Part shown: positions 1-27,924 of the stretch, in pieces
Layout of the letters: every line of letters starts with the position of its first letter
Position numbering within the stretch: the stretch's first letter is position 1
Notes under the pieces: generated by a model
Told to the model about the DNA's origin: nothing
Databases searched by the model: none
What the model saw: only the letters and a program-made list of their open reading frames with translations
Made by a program: the position numbers and the translations under genes
IMG/VR virus record: IMGVR_UViG_3300030060_002483
Coordinates: 1 to 62,064 of that record
DNA length: 62,064 nucleotides
Origin: a virus
Taxonomy: Duplodnaviria; Caudoviricetes
Strand: one strand, 5' to 3'

Positions 1-77
1 CAGGTGCAAATAACACAGCTATAGGTACTAATGCTTTAGATGATAATACAACAGCAAGTAATAACACAGCAGTTGGT
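1..77 (+). repeat. 77-bp exact direct repeat, copy 1 (copy 2 at 59933-60009)
   Basis: caggtgcaaataacacagct...acacagcagttggt is identical at both places; the copies diverge at 78 versus 60010. Confidence 0.95.
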
Positions 78-941
78 CATGGTTGCATGAGTGCTACTAC
101 GACAGGTGACCAAAATGTAGCTGTGGGTGTAGGTGCACTAGGAAATAACACAACAGGAACTATTAACGTAGCTATGGGTTTTGCAGCGTTAAATGACAAT
201 ACAACAGCTAGTAATAATACTGCTATAGGTAATCAAGCTTTAGCTGTAAACACTACAGGTACAAGGAATACTGTTTTAGGCTCATCAGCAGGTGCAGCTA
301 CAACTACAGGAGATGACAATACTTTTGTCGGTTATTTATCTGGAGGTGTAGGCACAGTAACAGGTGATAATAATACTACTTTAGGTTCATCTGCTGGTAA
401 GAATTTATCAAGTGGTGGCAACAATCTCTTATTAGGACATGATGCAGGACTTTCAGGAAGTCCAGGTGGACCTATAGATACTGAATCAAATGAAATTGTT
501 TTAGGTGATGAAAATATTTCAGCTGCACATATACAGGTAAGCTTTACAGTAGCATCTGATAAAAGAGATAAAACAGATGTAGAGCCTATAAAAATGGGTT
601 TAGACTTTGTTAATAAATTAGAGCCTGTAACATATAAATGGGATAAAAGAAGTTTATATGTAGAAAAAGGTGCAGATTTTAATGACGTAGTACCAGATGG
701 TTCACATAAAGAAGATTGGTTAGATGTAGGATTTCTTGCTCAAGATGTTGAAAAGCTTGAATCAGAATATGGCTATAATATAGCTGATAAAACTAATTTA
801 ACTACAAATGTTTCTGAAAATGGTCAACAGTATGGATTGACCTATTCTAAATTTGTACCTATGCTTGTAAAAGCAGTACAAGAACTGTCTACCCAGGTAG
901 ATGAATTAAAAGCCGAAATACAAACCTTAAAGGAGGATTAA
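1..941 (+). CDS. C-terminal part of a tail fibre (14-aa NTAxG repeats plus peptidase S74 intramolecular chaperone), 5' truncated; allele A tip
   Basis: Frame is open from base 3 (GANNTAIGTNALDDNTTAS...). It continues the 56221 fibre in frame across the 77-bp repeat. S74 motifs SDKRDK and GFLAQDV precede a coiled-coil end. Confidence 0.9.
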   Translation, partial: GANNTAIGTNALDDNTTASNNTAVGHGCMSATTTGDQNVAVGVGALGNNTTGTINVAMGFAALNDNTTASNNTAIGNQALAVNTTGTRNTVLGSSAGAATTTGDDNTFVGYLSGGVGTVTGDNNTTLGSSAGKNLSSGGNNLLLGHDAGLSGSPGGPIDTESNEIVLGDENISAAHIQVSFTVASDKRDKTDVEPIKMGLDFVNKLEPVTYKWDKRSLYVEKGADFNDVVPDGSHKEDWLDVGFLAQDVEKLESEYGYNIADKTNLTTNVSENGQQYGLTYSKFVPMLVKAVQELSTQVDELKAEIQTLKED

Positions 942-1221
942 TATGGCAACAGTAACAGAAGTATTAGATGCAGCATTACATAGCGTTGCGTTAATCGACA
1001 GTATAGATGCAGATGCATCAAGCGTAACAGTATGTGAGGGACTATCGCAGTCTGAAATAAACGAGTTGGTACAAAGAAACGTAGATCATTTAGAGATCAT
1101 TTTATTGTATGAACCAGTTGATAGTGATGATGACACACCTAACGTCAAAGGTTCATCAAGTAGTAAAAAAACTAATTGCACTAATGCAATTACTAAAGGA
1201 AAAGCATATATTGCTGCAAAC
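870..1221 (+). repeat. Near-identical ~350-bp repeat, copy 1 (copy 2 at 61021-61372)
   Basis: Both copies encode KAVQELSTQVDELKAEIQTLKED followed by 93-aa ORFs that differ at 6 residues. Confidence 0.9.
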
Positions 1222-1224
1222 TGA
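943..1224 (+). CDS. Tail-fibre-associated protein (paralog/allele of 61094-61375)
   Basis: Directly follows the fibre with an AGGAGG RBS; 87/93 identical to the 61094 ORF. Confidence 0.75.
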   Translation: MATVTEVLDAALHSVALIDSIDADASSVTVCEGLSQSEINELVQRNVDHLEIILLYEPVDSDDDTPNVKGSSSSKKTNCTNAITKGKAYIAAN

Positions 1225-1232
1225 GGAAAATT

Positions 1233-1484
1233 ATGACGACTAAAAACGACACACCCAAAATAACCATAGGCGAAAAAGAGCTTGATTATACTGAGCTAAG
1301 TGATACTAGTAAATATTACCACAGCCAACTATTAGATCTAATAGATAAAAGAAATAAACTACAGTTTCAAATAGATCAAATTAATATGAGTATAAACGGT
1401 TTTGACAAACTTTTTGTAGATTCAACATCAGAAACTGTTGAAGAAAAAATCAATGAGGACGAAAAAGATGAACTGGATAACTAA
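1233..1484 (+). CDS. Hypothetical coiled-coil protein, loosely similar to 61432-61632
   Basis: ORF with GAGG RBS; SQLLDL...LQFQIDQI resembles SQIEDL...LSFQLDQV. Confidence 0.6.
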   Translation: MTTKNDTPKITIGEKELDYTELSDTSKYYHSQLLDLIDKRNKLQFQIDQINMSINGFDKLFVDSTSETVEEKINEDEKDELDN

Positions 1485-1632
1485 AGTATTAGGTAAAGTG
1501 GGTATTATAGAAACTAAAGAAGTGCGTGCTAGGGATACCAAAGGTAGGTACGTAGCAGATGACCCCACAACAGTTAAAAACGAAGCTTACAAAACAGTTA
1601 GAGTAAAACGTAGTAAGAATAAGAAAAGTTAA
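1468..1632 (+). CDS. Small basic hypothetical protein (RARDTKGRYVADDP motif)
   Basis: ORF in the operon; ATG at 1468 chosen. Confidence 0.55.
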   Translation: MNWITKVLGKVGIIETKEVRARDTKGRYVADDPTTVKNEAYKTVRVKRSKNKKS

Positions 1633-1634
1633 AA

Positions 1635-1985
1635 ATGGACTCTGCTGTAGCTCTCATTACAGAGTTAGGCTTCCCTATCGCAGCAGCACTGGGGTTAGGT
1701 ATTTTCGTTTGGAAACTAATCAATAGAATTATTGACGGTATGGAAACTAAACTAGACACGGTTGACGATAAAGTAAATACTTCAATAACAGCTATGGAAG
1801 AAAGATTAGGTACTAAACTTGATAGCCAACACGGTATTTTAGTTGCTCTAATAGATAGAATACGTAGTTTAGATAATGAGATTATTAGACAAGACACGTT
1901 AATAAAAACTATACTAGGAGTACCACAATTAATTGATAGCAATAAGATTGCTAAGGCGGATAGAGATGACCAAAGGAAAGATTAA
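1635..1985 (+). CDS. Single-pass membrane protein with coiled coil (GFPIA motif, possibly holin-like)
   Basis: Hydrophobic N-terminal helix LGFPIAAALGLGIFVW; coupled to csgF. Confidence 0.6.
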   Translation: MDSAVALITELGFPIAAALGLGIFVWKLINRIIDGMETKLDTVDDKVNTSITAMEERLGTKLDSQHGILVALIDRIRSLDNEIIRQDTLIKTILGVPQLIDSNKIAKADRDDQRKD

Positions 1986-2451
1986 GTTACCACTGCATTA
2001 TAAAATAATCATAGCTTGGGCTATAGTTTTATTAGTAGGTATTGTTAGCGTAAACATAAAAGCAGATACTATAACCTTTAAGTTCAAAAACCCTTCATTT
2101 AGTGGAGTAGGAACTTCTAGTCATTACCTTACGATAGAAAATCAAGAATTTAACCGTAAAATGACTATAAAAGAAGAGATCAAAGCTTTACAGGAACAGA
2201 TAGAAAGAGATAAAGAAAACACAACTCTAGCTCGTTTTATTAGGAACCTTGAGAGCCGTATCTATGCACAGCTAAGTAGACAACTAGTGGAAAATTTATT
2301 CGGTGAAACACCTAGTGATAAAGGTACGTTAACTTTAGAGGGTAACACTATAGACTATAGTATTGAAGACGGAATAATAACTTTAACTATTACAGACCCA
2401 GATGGAAATGTCACCACGATACAGTTGCCTGTTGGCAATTTTACTTTCTAG
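1966..2451 (+). CDS. csgF: Curli assembly protein CsgF-like
   Basis: Signal peptide then DTITFKFKNPSFSG, matching the CsgF N-terminus (TMTFQFRNPNFGG type); C-terminal ITITDPDGNVTTIQLP; lies upstream of csgG. Confidence 0.85.
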   Translation: MTKGKIKLPLHYKIIIAWAIVLLVGIVSVNIKADTITFKFKNPSFSGVGTSSHYLTIENQEFNRKMTIKEEIKALQEQIERDKENTTLARFIRNLESRIYAQLSRQLVENLFGETPSDKGTLTLEGNTIDYSIEDGIITLTITDPDGNVTTIQLPVGNFTF

Positions 2452-3283
2452 TTGCAGTATAGCACCTGTATTTAAAGAGTTAGAACAAAAAGGAGAATGC
2501 GTAAAATATAAAACTGTGTTAGATGGAACAGTTTATAGAAAATGCGTTGAAAGAGAACCTTATTTAAAAGGTTTGCCTAAAATTCTTGAGCTGCAATCAA
2601 AAGAATTATTAAATATAGAACCGCCTAAAAAACCTATTATAGTAGCTGTTTATCCTAACGCTTTTACAGATCAAACTGGTCAACGTAAAAGTAATAGTGA
2701 GTTTGCTTTATTCAGCACAGCTATAACTCAAGCACCTAGTCATTTATTAATACGTGCTTTAAAACAAACTGCTAACGGTGAGTTTTTTAGAGTGGCTGAA
2801 AGAGTAGGTTTAGATAACTTAACTAAAGAAAGACAGTTAATACGTTCAGCTAGAGAAAACGAAGATAATTCAAGCCCTTTACTACCTCTTTTATTTGCTG
2901 GTGTTTTAATGGAAGGTGCTATAGTAGGGTATGACACTAATGTAAAAAGTGGAGGTATAGGAGCTAGATATTTAGGGATAGGCACTAGTAAACAATACAG
3001 AGTAGATAGTGTTACCCTTTCATTACGTATGGTCTCAGTAGTAACAGGTGAAGTATTAATAGATGTTTTAGTAAATAAACAGATATATAGTTACGGTCAA
3101 TCACAAGATGTTTTTAGGTTTATAGAAGCTGGTACAGAATTAGTAGAGCTTGAGGGCGGTAATACTGAAAATGAATCAGTTACTATAGCTTTACAACGAG
3201 CTATAGAGTCAGCAGTTGTAGAGATTATAAAAATAGGTTATGATAAAGGATATTGGGAGCAAAAATATGAAGAAACTAATTAG
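2408..3283 (+). CDS. csgG: Curli secretion channel CsgG-like outer-membrane lipoprotein
   Basis: Lipobox LLSSC; motifs FTDQTGQRK, FSTAITQ, ERVGLDNLTKERQLIR, EGAIVGYD and GGIGARYLGIG. Confidence 0.92.
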   Translation: MSPRYSCLLAILLSSCSIAPVFKELEQKGECVKYKTVLDGTVYRKCVEREPYLKGLPKILELQSKELLNIEPPKKPIIVAVYPNAFTDQTGQRKSNSEFALFSTAITQAPSHLLIRALKQTANGEFFRVAERVGLDNLTKERQLIRSARENEDNSSPLLPLLFAGVLMEGAIVGYDTNVKSGGIGARYLGIGTSKQYRVDSVTLSLRMVSVVTGEVLIDVLVNKQIYSYGQSQDVFRFIEAGTELVELEGGNTENESVTIALQRAIESAVVEIIKIGYDKGYWEQKYEETN

Positions 3284-3971
3284 TCTTTTACTCACAACAA
3301 CATTCGTATTTGCTGCGGATAATGAGATTTATGTTGACCAAAGCGGTGCAACAGCTAATATTGATTTAGAGCAACTAGGCTCTGGTAATATTATAGGCGG
3401 TTTAAACTCAGCTGCTGGTAGTTTAACAGCGTTAGATTTAGACGGATCAACTTTGACTTTAGACATAAATCAAATAGGTAACACTAATAAATTCTTAGGT
3501 GATATCTTAGGTGATACTATTACTGGTTTTTTTGAGTTTGATGGAGATAGTAATACTTTTACTATACAAGGTGACCCAACAGATACTTACGGTATAGATA
3601 GTTCAAACTATAACGTAAACGTTAGTGGTTCATCAAACACCTTTACACTCGACCACGGTACATCAGCATTAGCAGCAACACTAGACCTTGATTGGATAGT
3701 GCAAGGAGACGGTAACACTTTTGATTTTGATATAAATTATGACGGTGCTACTAATTACGTAGATGTTGACGGTGATAGCAACACGGTTAATTTCACAGGC
3801 TCAGGGTATGCTGGAGGTTATTTCTACCTTGATCAAACAGGTAATAGCAGAACATTTGATATTACACAATCGAGTACACTAGATAATGACTGGCTTAAAA
3901 TCATTTCTAATGGCAACAGTGGTACTGTGTGCGTTATACAAAACGACCAAGGCACAAGCACAAGTTGTTAA
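3267..3971 (+). CDS. Secreted curlin-repeat (CsgA/CsgB-like) beta-solenoid protein
   Basis: Signal peptide MKKLISLLLTTTFVFA; repeated x-Q-x-G-x-x-N units (EQLGSGN, NQIGNTN, VQGDGN, DQTGNS); N/G/D/T-rich. Confidence 0.7.
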   Translation: MKKLISLLLTTTFVFAADNEIYVDQSGATANIDLEQLGSGNIIGGLNSAAGSLTALDLDGSTLTLDINQIGNTNKFLGDILGDTITGFFEFDGDSNTFTIQGDPTDTYGIDSSNYNVNVSGSSNTFTLDHGTSALAATLDLDWIVQGDGNTFDFDINYDGATNYVDVDGDSNTVNFTGSGYAGGYFYLDQTGNSRTFDITQSSTLDNDWLKIISNGNSGTVCVIQNDQGTSTSC

Positions 3972-4998
3972 TATAGGAGATATATCCGAGCTTTCAGGTT
4001 ACGCTGAAGTATTAAGAGATAAACCGTACGAAGCTGAACTAGAGTTTGCTATACGTAGCAACGATCAAGCTGTAACTAAAAACGGTAGGTTAGGTATACA
4101 GTTTTTAGACGACTCAGTAGTACGTTTAACAGAACACTCAAAACTACTTATCAATGAGTATGTTTACGACCCTGACCCTAGTAAAGCTAAAATGTCACTT
4201 AATTTTGCTTTAGGTACAGCTAGGTTTATAACGGGTAATTTAAACCGTATAGATAAACAAAACATAAAACTCACAACACCGACAGCAAACATAGCCATAC
4301 GTGGAACAGATTTTACAGCTACTGTTGATGAGTTAGGCAGGAGTTTGATAATACTTCTGCCAGACTCAATGGGTCTTTCAAGTGGTGAGATAGAGGTGGT
4401 AACTGCTATGGGTAGTGTTATATTAAATAAACCTTATGAAGCTACTACAGTTAGTGTCTTTGAATCAGTTCCTAGTAAACCTGTTATACTTGATCTTACC
4501 TTAGATATTATTGATAACATGTTGATAGTGAGTCCGCCTAAAGAAGAAATACTCGTTGAAGAAGAAACTAGTACTACTAAAACAGTAAGTTTACTAGACT
4601 TCAATGATTTAGATATAGATTATTTAGCTGAAGATTTTTTAAATACAGATGAACTTGAGTTTACTGAGCTCGATATAAATTACTTAGATGTAAACTTTCT
4701 AGAAGATTTACTAGATATCATAGATGCTTTAGCTATAGATGAAGAAGAGGATCAACTAGCTTTAGCAACTGGTGTTAATATTAGCGGTACGTTAATAGGT
4801 CAAGACCCCGATACACAAATAACTACTTTAGTTACTGGTCAAGTTATTAGTTTACGTCGTGCGGTAAGTGAGTCTGTACGTTTAGATTTAAACAGCGGTA
4901 ATAGTTACACGGTTATATTAATACAAGACGGTGTATCAAACGTAGTTAAAATAAACGGTGGTGGTGATTCAATAATAACTATTAAACAAAGCGGTTGA
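3886..4998 (+). CDS. FecR-domain periplasmic protein with acidic C-terminal region
   Basis: Signal peptide; FLDDSVVRLTEHSKL and TPTANIAIRGTDF are FecR-type motifs. Confidence 0.85.
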   Translation: MTGLKSFLMATVVLCALYKTTKAQAQVVNIGDISELSGYAEVLRDKPYEAELEFAIRSNDQAVTKNGRLGIQFLDDSVVRLTEHSKLLINEYVYDPDPSKAKMSLNFALGTARFITGNLNRIDKQNIKLTTPTANIAIRGTDFTATVDELGRSLIILLPDSMGLSSGEIEVVTAMGSVILNKPYEATTVSVFESVPSKPVILDLTLDIIDNMLIVSPPKEEILVEEETSTTKTVSLLDFNDLDIDYLAEDFLNTDELEFTELDINYLDVNFLEDLLDIIDALAIDEEEDQLALATGVNISGTLIGQDPDTQITTLVTGQVISLRRAVSESVRLDLNSGNSYTVILIQDGVSNVVKINGGGDSIITIKQSG

Positions 4999-6737
4999 TG
5001 AAAAAACTTATAATACCTATAGTTTTATTTTTATGTTTACCTTTAATATTTAAAAGTACTCCTACAGAAATAATAAAACTAAGAACTTTTGACACATTAG
5101 TAGAAAAACAAGAACCCTCTGGTTTTTTTACTATACTCAATATAACTGAAGAAGATGTAGCTAGTGAGGGTGGTTACCCTTTACCTAGACAAAGACTAGC
5201 TGAAATACACATAGAGCTTTTACAAAAAGGTGCTTTAGGTGTAGGTTGGGTACTATCTTTTCCACAACCAGACAGGTTAGGCGGAGATAAAGCATTCGCT
5301 GAAGCGTTGAGTTATGGCGGTTCAGTTATAGCAATGTTTGAAAATGAGAACGGAGTTTACCCACCTACTACAGGCACAGTCATTATGGGGGAAAACGCAG
5401 GAGGTATAGAGACTGTAGGAGTTATACCTAATATAGATATTCTAACTTCAACTTCTTTTCAAGGTGTGGCTACGGCACGTACGGAAGTAGATCAGTTAGT
5501 AAGACGTATGCCTTTATTACTAAAAACACCTGATGGCTACGTTTCTGCGTATGGCACAGAAGTTATGAAAGTGTTGGCAGGTAATCAAACATATATTATA
5601 AAAACTAATGAGTTAGGTATTGAAGAAATAATAGTACAAGGTCTTGATCCAGTAAAAACAGACAGTTTAGGTCGTAAGTGGATAAGTTGGGTAGACACAC
5701 CACAAACCACACTTAGTGAGATGGATGTTGAAAATAAATATGTTTTTGTAGGTGTTACAGCTAGTGGCGTGATGCCACAAGTTGCTACTCCAGTGGGTTT
5801 ATTAGAACCACATAAAATACAAACAGCTTTAGCTGAGTCAATATTAATTAAAAACTCACCATATATACCTGATTGGTCATTAACTTTAGAGTTAGTGATA
5901 CTAATAATTAGTGTTGTGTTAGTTTGGTTTTTAATAATTTTATTAGGTATAACGTGGGGTGTTTCCTTAGGAGTCCTTACAGCGTCAGCTACGTCATTAG
6001 GGGGATATTACTTAATAAGTAAGGGTTTATTAATAGACGTCACTTGGAGCCTTATAAGTCAATTTATCACTGGCTCAATAGCTTTTTACCTACGTTTTAG
6101 AGAACAGTATAAATTAAGACAATTAATTAAAAAACAGTTTGAGCATTACCTCGATCCACGACAAGTAAAACAACTACAAAAGAATCCTGAACTATTAAAA
6201 CTAGGCGGTGAAAAAAGATACTGTACTTTTTTATTCACTGATGTGCGTGGGTTTACCGCTTTATCTGAAATATTAGAACCAGAAGAAGTTACTCATATTA
6301 TGAACAGAGCTTTGACTATACAATCAAACGCAGTAAAAGAATATGGCGGTATGGTAGACAAGTATATAGGTGACGCTATGATGGCTATCTTTAACGCTCC
6401 TATAGACCTGCCAGACCATGAGAATAGAGCCATACAAACAGCGTTGAAAATACAGGAAGATATGCAAAAAGCCAATTTAGGTATAGAAATAGGTATAGGC
6501 ATAAACTCTGGAGAAGCGATAATAGGTAATATGGGTAGTGATTCACGGTTTGATTATTCTGCTATAGGCGACGCTGTAAATACTGCAGCTCGTTTAGAAA
6601 GTGCAACTAAAGAAGCTGGAGTAAATTTAATAATAGGTCATAATACTAAAAAAAGTTCAAAATATAAGTTAAAATTGTTAAAGCCTATAAAAGTTAAAGG
6701 CAAAAGACATAAACTAAGTATATATACATATGGCTAG
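4998..6737 (+). CDS. CHASE2-domain membrane class III adenylate/guanylate cyclase
   Basis: CHASE2-like region, three TM helices, then catalytic motifs FTDVRGFT, DKYIGDAMMA, GIGINSG and IGDAVNTAARLES. Confidence 0.92.
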   Translation: MKKLIIPIVLFLCLPLIFKSTPTEIIKLRTFDTLVEKQEPSGFFTILNITEEDVASEGGYPLPRQRLAEIHIELLQKGALGVGWVLSFPQPDRLGGDKAFAEALSYGGSVIAMFENENGVYPPTTGTVIMGENAGGIETVGVIPNIDILTSTSFQGVATARTEVDQLVRRMPLLLKTPDGYVSAYGTEVMKVLAGNQTYIIKTNELGIEEIIVQGLDPVKTDSLGRKWISWVDTPQTTLSEMDVENKYVFVGVTASGVMPQVATPVGLLEPHKIQTALAESILIKNSPYIPDWSLTLELVILIISVVLVWFLIILLGITWGVSLGVLTASATSLGGYYLISKGLLIDVTWSLISQFITGSIAFYLRFREQYKLRQLIKKQFEHYLDPRQVKQLQKNPELLKLGGEKRYCTFLFTDVRGFTALSEILEPEEVTHIMNRALTIQSNAVKEYGGMVDKYIGDAMMAIFNAPIDLPDHENRAIQTALKIQEDMQKANLGIEIGIGINSGEAIIGNMGSDSRFDYSAIGDAVNTAARLESATKEAGVNLIIGHNTKKSSKYKLKLLKPIKVKGKRHKLSIYTYG

Positions 6738-6945
6738 TAAAAGATTAACAGTACAAGATGTAGCTAAAGATTTAGCAGTTTCTAAAAAAGAAAACGCTGA
6801 ACGCTGGAAAACAGCTTTTAATGAGTTTAGTGAAATCAAACAAGAAATAACTTCTATAAATAACACCATACGCATGGCAACTTTTGGCGTGTTTAGTTTT
6901 ATAGGTGCTTTATCTATAGCAGTTTTAACTACGGTGGTAATATGA
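6730..6945 (+). CDS. Small coiled-coil plus C-terminal TM protein (possible holin/XhlA-like)
   Basis: C-terminal hydrophobic helix; upstream of the lysis genes. Confidence 0.5.
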   Translation: MASKRLTVQDVAKDLAVSKKENAERWKTAFNEFSEIKQEITSINNTIRMATFGVFSFIGALSIAVLTTVVI

Positions 6946-7421
6946 AAAATTTATTAAAAAGTGTTGTAGGAGCAGTAGCACCTACTTTAGGTACAGCTTT
7001 AGGTGGACCGATGGGCGGTATGGCTGGTAATATGATATCTGAGGTTTTAGGTTGTGCTAATAACCCTAAAGCTATAGAAACTGCTATACAAAACGCTACA
7101 CCAGAACAAATGATGGAGCTTAAAAAAGTAGAAAAAGACTTTGAACTTAAAATGAAAGAGCTTGAAGTTGACGTATTTAAACTAGAAACACAAGATAAAC
7201 AACACGCTAGAGGGTTATTCAGTAAAGATTGGACTGCTCGTATTATAGGTTTAGTAACTATAGGTGGGTTTTTAGGTTACATATTTTTAGTAACCTTACA
7301 ACCACCAGAACAAAATAGCGAAGCTCTTATAAATCTAGTATTAGGATATTTAGGAGGGTTAGCGAGTGCCATTATTTCATTCTATTTTGGAGCGTCTCAC
7401 TCAAACGATAAAGGGGAGTAA
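6942..7421 (+). CDS. Putative holin (multi-TM membrane protein)
   Basis: APTLGTALGGP N-terminus, two C-terminal TMs ending YFGAS; adjacent to the lysozyme. Confidence 0.65.
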   Translation: MKNLLKSVVGAVAPTLGTALGGPMGGMAGNMISEVLGCANNPKAIETAIQNATPEQMMELKKVEKDFELKMKELEVDVFKLETQDKQHARGLFSKDWTARIIGLVTIGGFLGYIFLVTLQPPEQNSEALINLVLGYLGGLASAIISFYFGASHSNDKGE

Positions 7422-7422
7422 A

Positions 7423-7866
7423 ATGAACACATCATTAGAAGGATTATCATTAATTAAAAAATTTGAAGGCTGTGAGCTTGAAGCGTATAAGTGTGCTGCG
7501 GGTGTTTGGACTATAGGGTACGGCTCAACTAAAGGCGTAAAAGAAAACGATAGTATAACACAAGAAGAAGCCGATAATTTATTACTAGAAGAAGTAAAAG
7601 AGTATGAAAAATACGTTGACTGTTACGTTGACACACCTTTAAAACAAAACCAGTTCGATTCATTAGTAGCGTGGACTTTTAACCTTGGTCCTAACGCTTT
7701 AGCTAGTTCTACTATGTTAAAAGTTTTAAACGCAGGTGACTATGAAGGAGTGCCAGCACAAATAAAAAGATGGAACAAAGCTAACGGAAAAGTACTAGAA
7801 GGTTTAGTTAGAAGACGTGAAGCTGAGGCTTTACTGTTTGAAGGCAAAGAGTGGCACGAGGTGTGA
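7423..7866 (+). CDS. Endolysin, GH24 lysozyme
   Basis: FEGCELEAYKCAAGVWTIGYGST, QFDSLV, GLVRRREAE. Confidence 0.95.
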   Translation: MNTSLEGLSLIKKFEGCELEAYKCAAGVWTIGYGSTKGVKENDSITQEEADNLLLEEVKEYEKYVDCYVDTPLKQNQFDSLVAWTFNLGPNALASSTMLKVLNAGDYEGVPAQIKRWNKANGKVLEGLVRRREAEALLFEGKEWHEV

Positions 7867-9732
7867 ATGCCTATAAGTAAAATTAATTTTAGACCAGGAG
7901 TAGTAAGAGAGGGAACCTCTTACTCTAATGAAGGGGGATGGTTTGACGTTAATAAAGTTAGGTTTAACGCAGGTTTACCACAAAAAATAGGTGGTTGGGT
8001 CAAAGATAACACTAACACTTTTTTAGGCACGTGTAGAGCTTTACTGGCTTGGGTCGATTTAGCTGGTACTAAATACTTAGGTTTAGGTACGCATTTAAAA
8101 TACTATGTAGAATTAGGTACAGGTTACCATGATATAACTCCTATACGTAGTACCACTAGTGCGGGTGACGTTACTTTTAGTGCCACTAACGGTAGTAGTT
8201 CTATAACTGTAGCCGACACTGCTCATGGTGCTGTTAAGAATGACTTCGTTACTTTTAGTGGTGCTAGTAGTTTAGGCGGTAATATTACAGCAAACGTACT
8301 AAACCAAGAATATCAAATAGCTAGTATTACTAACGCTAATAGTTACGTAATAACTGCTAAAGATACTAGCGGTACAACAGTTACAGCTAACTCTAGTGAT
8401 AGCGGTAACGGAGGCAGTAGCGTAGTAGGAGCTTATCAAATAAACGTAGGTCTTGATGTTTTTATTTCTAGTACAGGTTGGGGGTCAGGTGCTTGGGGTG
8501 CAGGTGCTTATGGTGAAAGCACAGTGTTGAGTATTAGTAATCAATTAAGGTTGTGGACTCATGATCATTTTGGTGAAGATTTACTTATAAACGTTAGAGC
8601 TGGTGGTTTATATTACTGGGATGAATCAGGTGGCGTTAATAATAGAGCAGTAGAACTTTCAAGTTTAAGCGGTAGTATTTTAGCTCCTACAGTAGGCTTA
8701 CAGGTTTTAGTTTCAGAAACAGATAGACACGTAATAGTTTTAGGTAGTGACCCTATATCAGGCAGTTCAAGAACGGGAGTAGTAGACCCGATGTTAGTGG
8801 CTTTTAGCGATCAAGAAAATTTATTAGATTTTGAACCTTTGTTAAGTAATACAGCTGGTGATTTACGTTTATCAGAGGGCAGTACAATCATAGGTGCTGT
8901 AAAAGCAAGACAAGAAATATTAATATGGACAGACACAGCTTTATATAGTATGCAGTTTATTGGTCCGCCGTTTACTTTTGGGTTAAATTTAATTAATAAC
9001 GCTAGTGGTTTAATATCACCTAACGGAGCAGTAGTGGCTCCTAGCGGAGTTTTTTGGATGGGTTACGATAATTTTTATATTTATAACGGTAGTGTGCAAA
9101 AAGTACCTTGTAGCGTACTTAGTTACGTTTTTGACGATATGAACTCAACACAAACACATAAGTTTTTTGCTTTTACTAATACTGAGTTTGATGAAGTAGG
9201 TTGGTTCTACTGCTCATCAGATAGTAGTGAGATAGACCGTTACGTAGTTTTTGATTACGCAGATAAAGTCTGGACTTACGGTCAAATATCTAGAACGGCT
9301 TGGTTAGATACAGGCGTAAAAAATTACCCAAGAGCGGTTTCTAATAATTATCTATACAGACACGAGTTTGGCTATAACGATGACGGTAGTCCTATGACTG
9401 ATGTCTTTATAGAGAGCAGCGATTTTGATATAGGTGACGGTGATACGTTCTCCTTTATTAGAAAAATAATACCTGATGTAAGGTTTTTAAATAACAGTAC
9501 AGACGGTCAAGTTAACATAGTTTTAAAAACTAGAAATTTTCCAGGTGAGTCATTAAACACCTCAAGCACTAACGCAGTGGGCAGTTCCACCACACAATCA
9601 CACGTTAGGGCTAGAGGTAGACAAGCCGTAGTACGTTTAGAATCAGATGACGATGATACTGACGCAAATAATGATGTGGGGTGGAGACTAGGTTTACTAA
9701 GAATGGACATACAAAACGACGGTAGAAGATGA
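7867..9732 (+). CDS. Tail/virion structural protein (P22 gp10 or tail tubular B-like)
   Basis: 621-aa beta-rich protein at the head of the tail/ejection operon. Confidence 0.65.
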   Translation: MPISKINFRPGVVREGTSYSNEGGWFDVNKVRFNAGLPQKIGGWVKDNTNTFLGTCRALLAWVDLAGTKYLGLGTHLKYYVELGTGYHDITPIRSTTSAGDVTFSATNGSSSITVADTAHGAVKNDFVTFSGASSLGGNITANVLNQEYQIASITNANSYVITAKDTSGTTVTANSSDSGNGGSSVVGAYQINVGLDVFISSTGWGSGAWGAGAYGESTVLSISNQLRLWTHDHFGEDLLINVRAGGLYYWDESGGVNNRAVELSSLSGSILAPTVGLQVLVSETDRHVIVLGSDPISGSSRTGVVDPMLVAFSDQENLLDFEPLLSNTAGDLRLSEGSTIIGAVKARQEILIWTDTALYSMQFIGPPFTFGLNLINNASGLISPNGAVVAPSGVFWMGYDNFYIYNGSVQKVPCSVLSYVFDDMNSTQTHKFFAFTNTEFDEVGWFYCSSDSSEIDRYVVFDYADKVWTYGQISRTAWLDTGVKNYPRAVSNNYLYRHEFGYNDDGSPMTDVFIESSDFDIGDGDTFSFIRKIIPDVRFLNNSTDGQVNIVLKTRNFPGESLNTSSTNAVGSSTTQSHVRARGRQAVVRLESDDDDTDANNDVGWRLGLLRMDIQNDGRR

Positions 9733-10058
9733 GTAAACTTTTAGCAACTAATTTACCGTTAGAGTTAGGGGACAGTGTAACTCCGCTAACTTACAATAAA
9801 TTAGTGAGAATATTAGAACTTAACTTAGGTCAGTTTGACCCTGATAGTATCAGACAAATAGATGGAGAAACGTTAAATAAGGTTAATTTTAATGCGGGTA
9901 GTATCATATGGAACACGACTATAGAGGCTTTACAGGTCTATACGGGTAATAAATGGGAGAATATCTCTACACCTAACAACCCTTTAGGCTTTGAGTTAAC
10001 AGGCTCAGTAGGTAAGGTAAGCGTAGTTAATAAAGGTGATACTACTATAAAAATTTAA
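9729..10058 (+). CDS. Hypothetical virion protein
   Basis: Overlapping stop/start coupling with the previous gene. Confidence 0.55.
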   Translation: MSKLLATNLPLELGDSVTPLTYNKLVRILELNLGQFDPDSIRQIDGETLNKVNFNAGSIIWNTTIEALQVYTGNKWENISTPNNPLGFELTGSVGKVSVVNKGDTTIKI

Positions 10059-10081
10059 GATTTGCCTTTATAATAGATTTT

Positions 10082-11068
10082 ATGGGTTTTTTGAGCAAAT
10101 TAGCGAAAAAGCTAAAATCTTCTATACGAGACATAGCTACAGTAGTGGGTTTCGCTATCGGTGGACCAGCAGGAGCAGCCATAGGTCAGGGTGTAGGTTC
10201 ATTAGCTGAAGGTAGAAGCCTTAAAAAAAGTTTAGGCAGTTCATTAAAAGTTTTCGGCGGAGCTAACGTATTAGCAGGAGCAGGTATAACTGGCGGTAAC
10301 CCAGCTGGTAAGTTGTTTCAAAACACAGGTAGAATACAACTAGGTTCTCCTATGGGAGCTGACGCTTTATCGGGGGGAGCTAAAGGTGTTTTTCAAGGAA
10401 TAGGTTCTGATTTACGTAATGTATTATCAGGTGATATGTCTTTAAGTTCTCTAGGTGAAAACTCTTTAGCTAAAGGTGCTTTTGATAATATTAATAGATT
10501 TGAACAAGCAGCACTAGCCTCTGGAGTCGCTTCTGCTTTAGGAGCAGTTACCGATGACCCTGAAACCTTACCTAATTTTTCTACTGGTAATTTCACTAGT
10601 AGACTAGGTGAAGGCGGTCCAGGACCAATAAACCCTTATACAGGACAACCTTACGGAGAAGAGACTGGCGGTTTAGCAGCAGCAGTACCCATTGACCCTA
10701 GTTTAACAATGGACCCTTTAACTCAAATAATATACGACGAATTAAGAAAAAGACAATACGACCTTTATGACTTACCTAGTTTTGATATGGTTCCAGCAGA
10801 ACACGGTGGAGAAATAAAAAGGTTAGCTGACGGTGGTGCGTTACCTGAGGTAGATTTAAGAGACTCAGGTGGAGAAACTAATGACCCCAACGGTTCAGGC
10901 GATAAAGATACTATACCAGCACTACTAGCTGACGGTGAGTTTGTAATGACTAAACAAGCAGTAAAAGGTATAGGTGACGGTAATCATAGTAAAGGCATTA
11001 GTGCACTTTACGCTATGATGGATAAAAACGAGAAAAAAGCAGAGGGTATGGGCTTAGGTAGAGCATAA
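10082..11068 (+). CDS. Putative ejection/internal virion protein
   Basis: Gly/Ala-rich N-terminal helices; C-terminal GSGDKDTIPALLADGEFVMT motif typical of phage ejection/tape-measure ends. Confidence 0.65.
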   Translation: MGFLSKLAKKLKSSIRDIATVVGFAIGGPAGAAIGQGVGSLAEGRSLKKSLGSSLKVFGGANVLAGAGITGGNPAGKLFQNTGRIQLGSPMGADALSGGAKGVFQGIGSDLRNVLSGDMSLSSLGENSLAKGAFDNINRFEQAALASGVASALGAVTDDPETLPNFSTGNFTSRLGEGGPGPINPYTGQPYGEETGGLAAAVPIDPSLTMDPLTQIIYDELRKRQYDLYDLPSFDMVPAEHGGEIKRLADGGALPEVDLRDSGGETNDPNGSGDKDTIPALLADGEFVMTKQAVKGIGDGNHSKGISALYAMMDKNEKKAEGMGLGRA

Positions 11069-24810: not shown

Positions 24811-25299
24811 ATGAATATATTTTACGTACATGAAGACCCAGCATATGCTGCTAGTTACTTACCAGATAAGTTAGTGGTTAAGATGCCTTTAGAGTCAGCT
24901 CAAATGCTTAGTACCGCACACCGTATACACTCAGGTGATGAATATTGTGATGCCCGTGGTATTTATAAAACTGCCTATAAAAATCATCCTTGCACTATAT
25001 GGACTAGGGAAACTAGTGATAACTATACTTGGTTATATAATCATTTTATTTTCTTATGTTACGAGTATGAAAGTAGGTATAACCGTGAACACTTAACGTT
25101 TACTAAGTTAGCTAAAGAGTTAGGTAAGCTACCTAAAGGTATAAAGATAGCTGATATGACTGAGTTACCACAAGCTATGCCCGATCAATATAAAAATGAT
25201 GACCCAGTGCAAGCTTACCGTGATTACGTAGTAAATGAAAAAACTTACGCACAGTGGAACAAAATACCTGACAGACAACCAAGTTGGTGGACTATATGA
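24811..25299 (+). CDS. Pyrimidine-dimer DNA glycosylase-like protein (Pyr_excise/DenV-related)
   Basis: MNIFY...DKLVVKMPLESAQMLST, NHPCTIW, PQAMPD...AYRDY. Confidence 0.8.
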   Translation: MNIFYVHEDPAYAASYLPDKLVVKMPLESAQMLSTAHRIHSGDEYCDARGIYKTAYKNHPCTIWTRETSDNYTWLYNHFIFLCYEYESRYNREHLTFTKLAKELGKLPKGIKIADMTELPQAMPDQYKNDDPVQAYRDYVVNEKTYAQWNKIPDRQPSWWTI

Positions 25300-26129
25300 G
25301 TAATTACCCTAAAACTGATTTTAATAACTATATGATAGAGCGTCACAGCATATACGAACGTAGAGCTGAAGGTCAAGCTTATCCTTGGACTGATGACCTT
25401 ATATTAAAAGAATATAGTTTTTGTAACGTGTACCGTGAACTAGATAGAGTTACTATATGGATAAGGGAAAACTGGCGTGAGCCTTACGCTGACCACCCTA
25501 ACTTACCGTTCGCTATGGCTATGGCTAGGCAAATCAATTGGCCAGAGACATTAGAGGATATAGGTTTCCCTGAACATTGGAACCCTAGTAGAGTTAAAGC
25601 TATAATGCAAGGTAGAATGGATAGAAAAGAAAAAGTTTATACAGGTGCCTATATGTTAACGGGAACCTTAGGAGGGACTAAAGTAGAGCAAACAGTGGAT
25701 AAAATTCTCACCCCACTCTACGAGTCCCCTCCTAGAATTATACCTAACTCATTAGAAGAAACATGGAAACGTTATCTACCGTATCCTGGATTTAGTGGTT
25801 TTATGGCGTATGAAGTAGTTACTGATTTACGACACACTAAACACTTAGAAAACGCTGAAGATATAATGACGTGGGCTAATCCTGGTCCAGGAGCTAAACG
25901 TGGACTAAATAGGATACACCGTAGACCGTTAGAAAAAAGCATACCTAAATCACAATTAATCAGTGAGATGAGAGAGTTACTAGAGTTATGTAACATGGCT
26001 CCTTTACCGTTAGAGATGAGGGATATAGAACATTGTTTATGTGAGTTTGATAAGTATGAAAGAGTACGGTTAGGTCAAGGTAAACCACGTGCTAAATATA
26101 AACCTAAACTACAGGAGGAGTTATTGTGA
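25296..26129 (+). CDS. aGPT-Pplase-like (alpha-glutamyl/putrescinyl thymine pyrophosphorylase clade 1-like) DNA base-modification protein
   Basis: PWTDD.IL..YSFCNVYRELDRVT, GFMAYEVVTDL, GPGAKRGL, IEHCLCEFDKY. Confidence 0.8.
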   Translation: MSNYPKTDFNNYMIERHSIYERRAEGQAYPWTDDLILKEYSFCNVYRELDRVTIWIRENWREPYADHPNLPFAMAMARQINWPETLEDIGFPEHWNPSRVKAIMQGRMDRKEKVYTGAYMLTGTLGGTKVEQTVDKILTPLYESPPRIIPNSLEETWKRYLPYPGFSGFMAYEVVTDLRHTKHLENAEDIMTWANPGPGAKRGLNRIHRRPLEKSIPKSQLISEMRELLELCNMAPLPLEMRDIEHCLCEFDKYERVRLGQGKPRAKYKPKLQEELL

Positions 26130-26923
26130 AAATTTATATACCTACCAGAGGCAGGGCTGACAACCAAGTAACGTTGTCTTTTTTCCCTGAGAGTATGCGT
26201 GAAAACGTTGTATTAGTAATAGACGCTGATGAGGAGGAACAGTACGTAAATAGTGACGGTCATTATAAATATATCTGTGAGTATATGGTAGTACCTGAAG
26301 ACATAAAGGGTATATCTAAAAAGCGTCAATACATACACGAAAACACTACGGACAATAAAATAGTTATGTTAGATGATGACTTACGTTTTTATATACGTAA
26401 GTCTACTAATGATTGGCATTTACGTTACTTAGAGCCTGATGAGTACCCTGCTTTATTCGGTTTATTAGATACTTGGTTAGATACTTACGCTCACGTAGGA
26501 GTGAGTGCTAGGGAAGGTAATAACAGGGTAGAACACTTAGCCGTAGAAAACACAAGATACATGAGAGTATTAGGGTATAACCTAGATATGTTTGATGACG
26601 TTGAGTTAGGTAGGGTAGAAGTTATGGAAGACTTTGATATTAACCTACAATTATTACGTCAAGGTAAACCAAGTAAGATAAGCTACTATTACGCACAAGG
26701 TCAAAAAAGTTCTAATGCTGCTGGTGGTTGTAGTGAGTGGCGTACCATAGATGTGCATAATGAGGGTGCTGAGCGTTTACACAACCTACATCCTGAGTTT
26801 GTTAAAATAGTAGAAAAAGAAACTAAAACAGCTTGGAACGGTATGCCTCGTAAAGACGTACAAGTACAATGGAAAAGGGCATTTAATAGTAGCCCAGATT
26901 TTAAACAAGGAGGATTATTCTAA
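26126..26923 (+). CDS. GT-A glycosyltransferase, TET-associated (TAGT/JGT-like)
   Basis: KIYIPTRGR, MLDDD, EDFD..LQLL..G, GGCS. Confidence 0.75.
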   Translation: MKIYIPTRGRADNQVTLSFFPESMRENVVLVIDADEEEQYVNSDGHYKYICEYMVVPEDIKGISKKRQYIHENTTDNKIVMLDDDLRFYIRKSTNDWHLRYLEPDEYPALFGLLDTWLDTYAHVGVSAREGNNRVEHLAVENTRYMRVLGYNLDMFDDVELGRVEVMEDFDINLQLLRQGKPSKISYYYAQGQKSSNAAGGCSEWRTIDVHNEGAERLHNLHPEFVKIVEKETKTAWNGMPRKDVQVQWKRAFNSSPDFKQGGLF

Positions 26924-27924
26924 TGCAAGTAATAAATTGTCAAAACGTTAATGATGGGTTTATCAAAGCTCTTGACTTAATTAAAAATAACCATGTGGTT
27001 ATAGGTAGTAGGGTAGGGGAAACACTAGAGTGTCCTACTCCTGTAACCACTGTTTATAACAACCCTACAGAAAGAGTTTTATTTGAAGAGATACGAGACG
27101 CTAACCCTTTCTTTCATTTTATGGAAAGTTTATGGATGTTAGAGGGTCGTAATGATTTAGCATACGTAAAAAGATATAATAAGCGTATGGAAGAATACAG
27201 TGATGACGGTGAAACTTTATGGGGTGCTTACGGTTACAGGTGGATAAAACACTTTGGTAAAAATCAATTAGATTTAATAGTAAGTGAATTAAGATCTAAC
27301 CCTAATAGTCGTAGGTGTGTACTACAAATGTGGGACGCTAGTCAGGACTTAGGTAGGGACTGTAAGGACGTACCTTGTAATACCGCCATATACTTTAAGG
27401 TTAGGGACGGTAAGCTTAATATGACCGTTAGTAATAGGTCTAACGACGTTATATGGGGTACTTTTGGAGCTAACGTAGTACATATGTCCATATTACAGGA
27501 ATATGTAGCCAGTGCTATAGGTATTGAAGTAGGTAAGTATTATCAAATTAGTGATAGCTTTCATGTGTATACTAACATATTTAATGACATGTATCAAGAC
27601 CTACAACGTGAAGATGCGTTTGATTTTTACTCTATGAAACATTATAATAACCCATATAACAATCAAGCACTTAAACCATACAAGATGATCAACACTGATA
27701 TACCTACATGGACTGCAGATTTACATAAGTTTTTAAACAGAGTAGCTTTTGGTGATAAGTTTTTTGATGACCCTTTTTTCACTAAGGTCGCTTGTCCCCT
27801 ACAAGACGCTTGGTACTTATATAAACAAAAAGAGTATGACTTTAGTTTACATGAAGTACAGTGTTGTGAAGCAGGTGATTGGGCGTTAGCAGGTTTTGAT
27901 TGGATTAATAGAAGGTTAAAATGA
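26923..27924 (+). CDS. Thymidylate synthase-superfamily enzyme, probable dUMP hydroxymethylase
   Basis: GAYGYR, SRR, catalytic PCN, RSND.IWG...N (Asn at the dUMP specificity position), SFHVY; base-modification context. Confidence 0.8.
   Translation: MQVINCQNVNDGFIKALDLIKNNHVVIGSRVGETLECPTPVTTVYNNPTERVLFEEIRDANPFFHFMESLWMLEGRNDLAYVKRYNKRMEEYSDDGETLWGAYGYRWIKHFGKNQLDLIVSELRSNPNSRRCVLQMWDASQDLGRDCKDVPCNTAIYFKVRDGKLNMTVSNRSNDVIWGTFGANVVHMSILQEYVASAIGIEVGKYYQISDSFHVYTNIFNDMYQDLQREDAFDFYSMKHYNNPYNNQALKPYKMINTDIPTWTADLHKFLNRVAFGDKFFDDPFFTKVACPLQDAWYLYKQKEYDFSLHEVQCCEAGDWALAGFDWINRRLK

Follow-up and report, generated by a model that had tools for sequence, protein, structure and literature searches.

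Curli-type modules carried by marine phages, built around a type VIII secretion system (T8SS), are already in print. In its accessible passages, the study of Wittmers et al. (2022, mSystems, PMC9599517) reports the full module in nine of 80 HTVC023P-type podophage genomes, in the order HK (histidine kinase), CsgF, CsgG, CsgA/B, FecR, an optional second CsgA/B and AC (adenylate cyclase). It also places the module in pelagimyophages, with transfer between the two phage families and an alphaproteobacterial origin, and describes a global distribution, transcripts in metatranscriptomes and an estimated share of ~0.1% of assembled viral proteins for phage curli proteins. The same passages label FecR an iron-dependent regulator and count an uptake channel among the functional options. 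According to the accessible parts of two further studies, CsgF and CsgG with their neighbours occur in pelagimyophages, where 'sibling capture' was proposed (Zaragoza-Solas et al. 2020, PMC7029224), and the CsgGF pair of phage Melnitz was proposed to form a lysis-timing pore (Buchholz et al. 2022, PMC9004378). We found no experimental follow-up on the pelagiphage T8SS or on a phage CsgG with an adenylate cyclase, in a literature coverage that leaves out subscription journals. Here, we analyse a cassette of this kind at positions 1635-6737 of the IMG/VR virus record IMGVR_UViG_3300030060_002483, whose whole stretch of 62,064 nucleotides (nt; positions 1-62,064) we call the window.

The cassette is, we think, probably a pelagiphage T8SS (curli) accessory island in an HTVC023P-type podophage, with the export and sensor mechanism proposed below. 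Its observed core is made up of six protein families, with their predicted locations and strict co-conservation. An earlier annotation of this DNA, made from the sequence alone (the original prediction), had put forward the whole chain in a podovirus-like phage as an undescribed system; that reading does not hold, as the same module was described in HTVC023P-type podophages in 2022 (PMC9599517, accessible passages). What the present analysis adds is the identity of the sensor domain as CHASE2, no kinase in the upstream gene, copies of the cassette in cells, and a scarcity of receptors for cyclic AMP (cAMP) in sampled Pelagibacteraceae.

Layout of the cassette and its phage

The six genes lie on the plus strand where the original prediction had placed them (Table 1). 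Successive genes overlap by 20, 50, 17, 86 and 1 nt, and the cyclase gene overlaps the next small gene by 8 nt; coordinates, strand, overlaps and Pfam matches together bear out the tightly coupled operon of six genes that had been proposed. The predicted position between tail fibre and lysis genes is likewise found in the window, with phrog_4636 upstream and holin-like and endolysin genes downstream. The Pfam and PHROGs scans behind these assignments took in 35 submitted open reading frames (ORFs) of the window, and 13 ORFs at the cassette locus were scanned by Pfam. Every cassette protein except the repeat protein matches a PHROG family of unknown function, so known phages already carry these genes.

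The record itself (CheckV 100%, ends classed as linear by IMG/VR) has nearly all of its genes on the plus strand. Its large terminase subunit (TerL) shares 61% identity with the protein of Pelagibacter phage HTVC027P and 55% with the one of HTVC023P, and the record also holds the primase, helicase, family A polymerase, thymidylate synthase, portal and head genes of the HTVC023P group. By these sequence relationships the phage is a podophage of HTVC023P type, and the TerL identities agree with the 'podovirus-like' label of the original prediction. Its hosts, judged from the phage relatives alone, are probably SAR11-like.

Table 1. Cassette genes and their immediate neighbours in the window
Feature	Position	Strand	Basis
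Tail-fibre gene, upstream of the cassette	3-941		phrog_4636, E 1.2e-66
Membrane-anchored coiled-coil protein, 116 amino acids (aa)	1635..1985	+	phrog_18771, E 4.3e-16; hydrophobic segment at residues 7-29
CsgF	1966..2451	+	PF10614, E 3e-19; ORF open from TTG 1933, likely start ATG 1966
CsgG, outer-membrane lipoprotein pore	2402..3283	+	PF03783, E 7.5e-52
Putative secreted curlin-like beta-solenoid subunit, 234 aa	3267..3971	+	Profile and model; ORF open from 3240
Secreted FecR/PupR-fold protein, 370 aa	3886..4998	+	PF04773, E 5e-10
CHASE2 sensor with class III (IIIb-like) adenylate cyclase, 579 aa	4998..6737	+	PF05226, E 3.4e-24; PF00211, E 4.9e-20; ORF open from TTG 4995
Lysis block: 71-aa membrane protein, 159-aa holin-like protein, endolysin	6730..7866	+	phrog_1544, E 1.5e-26; Phage_lysozyme PF00959, E 8.6e-49

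Conservation and authenticity of the locus

A scan of viral contigs gave 597 confirmed relatives of the cyclase, the best 80 of which were kept; at least 3900 nt of sequence upstream of the cyclase is available in 44 of these 80. All 44 loci hold CsgF, CsgG, curlin and FecR genes in identical order. The original prediction had named a lack of co-conservation as a finding that would speak against it, and the opposite is observed. Furthermore, the cassette-linked cyclases form a single clade in a tree of the cyclases, with 100/100 support.

That host DNA was mis-assembled onto a phage contig has a negligible chance of being the explanation. Nothing was found in its favour in a record that IMG/VR classes as linear. 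The left junction is bridged by contigs of four other runs from four studies (1113-1878, 919-1690, 1069-1681 and 1511-1747) and the right junction by one contig (6284-6775); the GC content of the block (0.345-0.351) is similar to that of the neighbouring DNA, and the only class III cyclases found in sampled Pelagibacteraceae are two phage-like copies. The same order in the same phage context recurs in dozens of viral contigs of independent origin and, with the bridging contigs, rule out the mis-join about which the original prediction had cautioned.

The site of the cassette varies among relatives, and adjacency to lysis genes is not conserved. Lysis genes or a virion protein (vsp621 homologue) stand 3' of the cyclase in only 23 of the 44 podophage loci, a holin-like gene lies directly upstream of the cassette in three, and in 12 the virion protein precedes the cassette and the available downstream sequence shows no lysis homologue. 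In HTVC027P the corresponding spot is taken by another small island, one that includes a 2OG-Fe(II) oxygenase. On one viral contig of 4.2 kb (L060:1-4241), the end of a cyclase gene (68% identical to that of the window) is followed directly by a second, more divergent cassette, whose identities to the window are 74% for the small protein, 41% for CsgF, 48% for CsgG, 29% for curlin and 54% for FecR; this arrangement could reflect tandem cassettes or a recombinant.

Pore proteins and fibre subunit

CsgG aligns to Escherichia coli CsgG (3x2r_D, E 1.6e-46) over residues 65-288, and in its N-terminal hydrophobic stretch, LLAILLSSCS, a cysteine comes right after LLSS, which we take to be a lipobox. 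CsgF aligns to E. coli CsgF (6l7a_J, E 0.0019), and its post-signal TFKFKNPSFSG pairs with TFQFRNPNFGG; this is the CsgF N-terminal peptide, which in CsgG-CsgF structures enters the CsgG barrel. CsgC and CsgD did not turn up in the Pfam scan of the 13 ORFs, which involved no family-specific search.

The next gene encodes the repeat protein, the family alignment of which has a periodic G-x-x-N / Q motif. The entire 62-kb record contains three sub-threshold Curlin_rpt matches, all within the ORF of this protein; NCBIfam CsgB gives E 3.9e-4, far under its cut-off, and a profile of 21 homologues matches the solved Pontibacter CsgA (8c50_A) at E 1.6e-8, with a high composition bias. The AlphaFold model is an all-beta solenoid (pLDDT 79.9) with CsgA 8c50_A as its best structural match among 48,161 chains (Z 17.8, 189 residues, 22% identity, root mean square deviation (rmsd) 8.7), and a Foldseek search of the model against the PDB returned nothing at E <=0.001. 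We read the repeat protein as a divergent curlin-type subunit, which is the least certain of the six assignments.

At window 3886-3971, the last codons of the curlin-like gene are read in one frame and the first codons of the FecR gene in another. The overlap is 86 nt in 25 loci and 92 nt in seven, so that one or the other length is kept in all 32 measurable loci. For phage genes it is unusually long and conserved, and HTVC008M has no such overlap.

FecR-fold protein, CHASE2 cyclase and upstream gene

The FecR-domain protein is modelled (pLDDT 67) as an N-terminal beta domain (residues 29-200, pLDDT ~80), an acidic disordered linker (210-294, <50) and a small C-terminal beta domain (300-368, 73-80). 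Its N-terminal domain resembles the PupR cell-surface signalling domain 6ovk_R (Foldseek E 3.2e-4, 148 columns, rmsd 2.9) and also 4m0n (E 4.9e-4). In that family, to judge by the title of the 6ovk entry, this fold binds the periplasmic domain of an outer-membrane protein. The likeness of the C-terminal domain to 5ix9, a 76-residue 'cell surface anchoring domain' (E 0.019, 62 columns, rmsd 1.1), is suggestive only. A relation of this C-terminus to a curlin repeat (FecR 330-371 against curlin 188-231; probability 2.9%, E 0.016) was considered and set aside as too weak.

No anti-sigma domain and no membrane span were found in the FecR protein, its sole hydrophobic stretch being an N-terminal signal-like helix. 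Neither an extracytoplasmic function (ECF) sigma factor nor a TonB-dependent transducer was named in the Pfam and PHROGs scans of the 35 ORFs, which included no search aimed at either. Because the model contains only a periplasmic PupR-type domain, and because FecR genes stand beside CHASE2 receptors elsewhere, the protein is, on its predicted architecture, not to be filed as an iron regulator. Co-folding of the CHASE2 periplasmic domain (alignment residues 20-292) with the FecR N-terminal domain (alignment residues 28-205), run without controls, scored 0.00 against a mark of 0.32, which speaks neither for binding nor against it.

In the cyclase, PF05226 covers residues 12-310, and hydrophobic segments lie at 1-27 and from ~301. 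The predicted topology has a helix at the N-terminus, CHASE2 in the periplasm, a membrane block that starts at ~300 and the catalytic domain in the cytoplasm. The best solved relatives of the catalytic domain are 6fht, 2w01, 3r5g and 1wc0, with class IIIb (2w01, 3r5g, 1wc0) closest, and the motifs FTDVRGFT, DKYIGD and VNTAARLE align to the class III cyclases 2w01, 3r5g and 1wc0. Residues D415, K455, D459 and R532 are invariant in 18 of 18 aligned cyclases, and the window keeps the Asn of VNTAARLE, as do 16 of the 18; we take these to be the two metal-binding Asp, the substrate Lys, and the transition-state Asn and Arg. The intact catalytic motifs of the original prediction are borne out by this alignment and invariance, and by analogy the DKYIGD lysine points to ATP as the substrate. 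At window 5612-5615, most contig depth in all four other runs drops a base at 5612 and inserts a T after 5615; the two changes compensate each other within the CHASE2 coding sequence, so that the window carries a minority local variant there.

The 116-aa protein encoded at the head of the cassette has a single N-terminal membrane helix followed by a coiled-coil tail, and a homologue is present in 39 of the 44 related viral loci. The 'histidine kinase' label that Wittmers et al. attach to this gene was not retained, as Pfam, NCBIfam and Atlas show no kinase domain: Pfam at an E limit of 10 gives only Baculo_PEP_C (0.022) and YvrJ (0.076), with no HisKA or HATPase_c, there is no NCBIfam match, and the Atlas matches are only viral clusters without a Pfam family.

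The same cassette in other phages and in cells

The Pelagibacter myophage HTVC008M and the Methylophilales phage Melnitz, both T4-like myophages in which the block is annotated in GenBank, encode small membrane proteins, CsgF, CsgG, a curlin-like protein, FecR and a CHASE2 cyclase in the order of the window. Their proteins are just 31-47% identical to those of the window. They carry the small gene twice, as against once in the window, and have an extra gene between FecR and cyclase, which matches PA14 and Curlin_rpt (E 5.2e-8) in HTVC008M and Curlin_rpt (E 1.9e-4) in Melnitz. Their cluster sits between the replication and tail genes of a 140-kb T4-like genome, not beside lysis genes.

A contig binned with a Nisaea metagenome-assembled genome (MAG) holds the whole cassette (L084:1-11283; FecR 57% identical), with genes for an integrase, a Cas4-like exonuclease and a Sak4-like annealing protein behind it. 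The contig has the look of a temperate element; in the cyclase tree, its copy branches as the sister of the podophage clade.

The cassette is also found on two Caulobacteraceae MAG contigs (L085 and L086; 82.6 and 32.3 kb), which encode CsgF, CsgG, two curlin-like proteins, a full-length FecR and a CHASE2 cyclase in the order of the window, with identities of 40% for FecR and 34% for the cyclase. Whereas the window cassette is flanked by phage genes, the Caulobacteraceae cassette has cellular, mostly metabolic flanks (among them methylmalonyl-CoA mutase, acyl-CoA dehydrogenase and a TonB-dependent receptor). A full-length FecR match was found in one of 151 sampled Caulobacteraceae genomes, the one holding L085. 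In the cyclase tree, these two copies and that of a third contig (L091) branch beside all phage copies. Some 440 nt after the CHASE2 cyclase, L086 encodes a PycTM-type effector (L086:13551-14144; PF18967 E 8.8e-25; PADLOC PycTM E 9.6e-18); at the same place, its sister contig L085 has a TetR-like gene and no PycTM.

Compared across viral and bacterial genomes, synteny thus extends to podophages, myophages, the Nisaea-binned contig and the two Caulobacteraceae contigs. In this distribution the block behaves as one selectable, mobile unit, which the two phage families have in common with the temperate-looking element and with two genomes of Caulobacteraceae.

FecR and CHASE2 genes elsewhere, and the cAMP receiver

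FecR and CHASE2 genes stand together without CsgG on three contigs, from Sulfurimonas (L157), Sulfurovum (L159) and Oceanospirillaceae (L161), each time behind a beta-barrel or unannotated gene; in the last two this is a porin- or Slam-like barrel gene. In the Burkholderia BiofilmReg operon, a FecR-domain gene adjoins a CHASE2 receptor with a kinase output (PMC5192318, accessible passages). A closed 1.21-Mb Pelagibacteraceae genome (G011; L205:10049-17934) has a CHASE2 receptor with a SpoIIE/PP2C phosphatase output, followed in the row by an unannotated 435-aa protein, a 504-aa FecR-domain protein, an alternative oxidase and an ShlB/POTRA outer-membrane transporter. A general rule of FecR-CHASE2 pairing was nonetheless dropped, as only two of 30 Alphaproteobacteria loci follow it.

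FecR domains also occur in other company. Pfam annotation of 36 proteins from FecR loci returned mostly unrelated genes. A Rhodoferax MAG (L163:2376-12331) has a FecR-domain protein between a TpsA-like exoprotein and its ShlB transporter, and in a Marinimicrobia MAG (L141:9971-11827) the FecR domain is fused to an alginate-export-type barrel.

The host family was surveyed in 81 Pelagibacteraceae genomes, a sample of incomplete genomes in which counts mean found or not found. A class III cyclase is present in two of them, in both cases of phage type, and one of these stands with FecR and an endolysin at 62-70% identity to the window. CHASE2 is present in 19, of which three are of phage type and 16 native (~451-693 codons, on large contigs).

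Proposed mechanism and alternatives

We propose that, during infection, the Sec system would export five of the six proteins. CsgG would form an outer-membrane channel that CsgF caps through its conserved N-terminal peptide, and the curlin-like subunit would leave through this channel and polymerise as a beta-solenoid fibre on a host without curli of its own. The secreted FecR/PupR-fold protein and the CHASE2 cyclase would together act as a periplasm-to-cytoplasm sensor, one that reads the condition of the envelope or the secretion system and adjusts cAMP synthesis accordingly. CHASE2 may be the brake on the cyclase, an inhibitory input suggested by Sinorhizobium meliloti CyaD1, in which a construct without CHASE2 makes cAMP constitutively (PMC5498481, accessible passages). 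The original prediction spoke of a complete trans-envelope circuit; a pore, a secreted subunit, a periplasmic FecR-fold protein and an inner-membrane cyclase do fit the predicted locations, and the trans-envelope arrangement is a fair reading of the sequences, whereas the undescribed status claimed for it is lost. The uses suggested there, which are to sense superinfection or contact, to time lysis or to aggregate hosts, are candidate roles.

Several results weigh against this proposal. The Pfam Curlin_rpt match to the repeat protein stays below threshold (E 2.4; best 13.3 bits against a cut-off of 20.7), its profile leaves E. coli CsgA unmatched (E 0.44), and the next structural matches of its model, SufD-like or generic beta-helices at Z 16.3, come in a near tie with CsgA (rmsd 8.7); what survives of the 'curlin-repeat protein' originally predicted is the profile match to CsgA and its place as top structural match. 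CsgE (PF10627) has no match anywhere in the record, in a search whose control finds CsgE in E. coli; Alphaproteobacteria also lack CsgE, CsgC and CsgD according to the accessible passages of Wittmers et al. (PMC9599517). In Melnitz infections no clumping was observed, as stated in the accessible passages of Buchholz et al. (PMC9004378). A FecR-domain gene lies within ~1.5 kb at just two of the 30 best CHASE2 loci in 301 sampled Alphaproteobacteria, and among 72 bacterial FecR loci without the cassette a CHASE2 neighbour was found only in L157, L159 and L161 and as a tblastn match in L160, with a CHASE2 profile, built for this search, that may miss distant members. No cNMP-binding (cyclic nucleotide-binding) domain was found in the window phage, and only three of the 81 Pelagibacteraceae genomes have one; given this rarity in the sampled host family, the cAMP signal has no visible receiver. 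Finally, the host assignment is itself inferred from relatives of the phage.

The genes around the window cassette invite a different reading, in which CsgG and CsgF make only a gated or pinholin-like channel, with no fibre, and the cyclase and FecR protein time its opening toward holin and endolysin. The cyclase gene overlaps the first of the three lysis-block genes by 8 nt, lysis genes or a vsp621 homologue lie downstream in 23 of 44 loci and a holin-like gene directly upstream in three, the nearest named Atlas clusters of the 116-aa protein are holin-like or releasin-like (scores <0.9), and lysis timing is what Buchholz et al. (PMC9004378, accessible passages) proposed for Melnitz CsgGF. 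However, the curlin-like gene in 44 of 44 loci and the 86/92-nt FecR overlap in 32 of 32 are hard to reconcile with a pore alone. Twelve of the 44 cassettes come after the virion protein without a lysis homologue found in the available downstream sequence, and in HTVC008M and Melnitz the cassette stands between replication and tail genes. We regard a pure lysis timer as unlikely. It is very improbable, in our view, that an open CsgG imports cofactors or siderophores, with FecR in the role of iron sensor that it has in the ferric citrate system. Such an uptake channel is among the options of Wittmers et al. (PMC9599517, accessible passages), who call FecR an iron-dependent regulator, and it would agree with a record in which CsgE, the periplasmic gate, is not found. 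Against it stand the make-up of the FecR protein, a signal sequence plus a periplasmic FecR/PupR-type domain with no anti-sigma domain or membrane helix seen, and the 35-ORF scans, in which no ECF sigma factor or TonB-dependent transducer was named, none having been specifically sought. FecR domains moreover occur in many non-iron settings, such as two-partner secretion (L163), barrel fusion (L141) and CHASE2 kinases.

An exclusion or conflict device, in which a cyclic nucleotide drives a membrane effector in Pycsar-like fashion and blocks rival phages or kills the cell on a periplasmic cue, also has features that speak for it: PADLOC PycC models hit the cyclase domain (best E 2.2e-26), the genes after the cyclase in the window encode small membrane proteins, and a PycTM-type effector gene follows the cellular cassette on L086. 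Yet a cross-match is expected between PycC and ordinary class III cyclases, which share a fold, and the seven other window proteins that were scanned (five of the cassette and two of the lysis block) match no PADLOC model. The sister contig L085 has a TetR-like gene and no PycTM in that place. The DKYIGD lysine and the Ser/Thr position are of adenylate-cyclase type, whereas the guanylate cyclase Cya2 (2w01) has Glu; the residue at that site presumably sets substrate specificity. We hold such a device to be quite unlikely.

Within the export and sensor proposal, a more far-reaching version is doubtful at present: that the FecR-fold protein and CHASE2 cyclase monitor the pore or fibre of the phage itself (secretion load, fibre contact or a second phage) and write cAMP to a new effector, and that FecR and CHASE2 serve as sensors of export barrels generally. 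Should this be true, the receiver would be a new kind of cAMP effector, encoded by phage or host and possibly tied to the downstream lysis genes, and the barrels sensed in this way would include the T8SS of the cassette, porin- or Slam-like barrels (L159, L161) and the ShlB type of the Pelagibacteraceae genome. SAR11 bacteria and their phages are among the most abundant marine biological entities. A surface fibre and a second-messenger enzyme in a streamlined free-living cell could alter aggregation, superinfection and carbon export, as has already been argued in print. To this we add that the module is better read as a CHASE2 receptor with a PupR-fold partner than as an iron regulator with a kinase, that two MAG contigs hold a cellular version of the whole cassette, and that the presumed host offers no obvious cAMP receptor among the sampled genomes.

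Neighbouring genes and further observations

The lysis block downstream of the cassette, in which the 71-aa gene overlaps the cyclase gene by 8 nt and a further overlap measures 4 nt, is treated here as context and not as part of the module. The record begins within the tail-fibre gene at 3-941, which has PHROG families 4636, 23837 and 6002 in common with a 1623-aa fibre protein (56221-61092); possible explanations are a pair of related fibre genes and a record cut inside a permuted genome. Promoter-like sites in 1-10200 number 31, against 35.6 expected, and terminator-like sites two, against 4.3 expected. None of the 24 sequencing runs listed was an RNA data set. At window 25284-27924, a thymidylate synthase homologue (phrog_5131, E 1.5e-122) adjoins a glucosyltransferase-like gene (phrog_842) and phrog_2396. 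These genes fit as DNA hypermodification partners, since the accessible passages of Wittmers et al. (PMC9599517) describe such partners for some clades of the group.

Comparison with known systems

The T8SS module of HTVC023P-type podophages is the nearest relative of the window cassette, from the same lineage by TerL and with the same content and order, including FecR and cyclase, and likewise with no CsgE. In the window, the FecR and cyclase genes overlap by 1 nt, with no second curlin gene in between, and the sensor domain is CHASE2, a word with 0 occurrences in the accessible text of PMC9599517.

Relative to the curli system of E. coli (csgBAC, csgDEFG), CsgG (E 1.6e-46) and the N-terminal peptide of CsgF are conserved in the window, whereas the FecR protein and CHASE2 cyclase are extra, the subunit is unmatched to E. 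coli CsgA (E 0.44) and CsgE is absent from the record. The window FecR protein has the periplasmic-domain fold of the FecR/PupR regulators in common with them, but these are membrane-spanning anti-sigma factors, and the window protein is predicted to be soluble and secreted, with an additional acidic linker and C-terminal beta domain. Its genomic partner is a CHASE2 cyclase, whereas theirs is a sigma factor or TonB-dependent transducer. The cyaD1 gene of S. meliloti and SMc02177 are, we assume, neighbours. A periplasmic CHASE2 domain would then have a secreted FecR-domain neighbour in S. meliloti, as it does in the Burkholderia BiofilmReg operon (PMC5192318, accessible passages) and in the window; a link to cell-surface or biofilm traits is described for these systems (PMC5498481, PMC5192318, accessible passages). 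Their outputs differ, the Burkholderia receptor having a kinase and the S. meliloti cyclase feeding the known receptor Clr, and neither of the two adjoins T8SS genes, as the FecR-CHASE2 pair of the window does.

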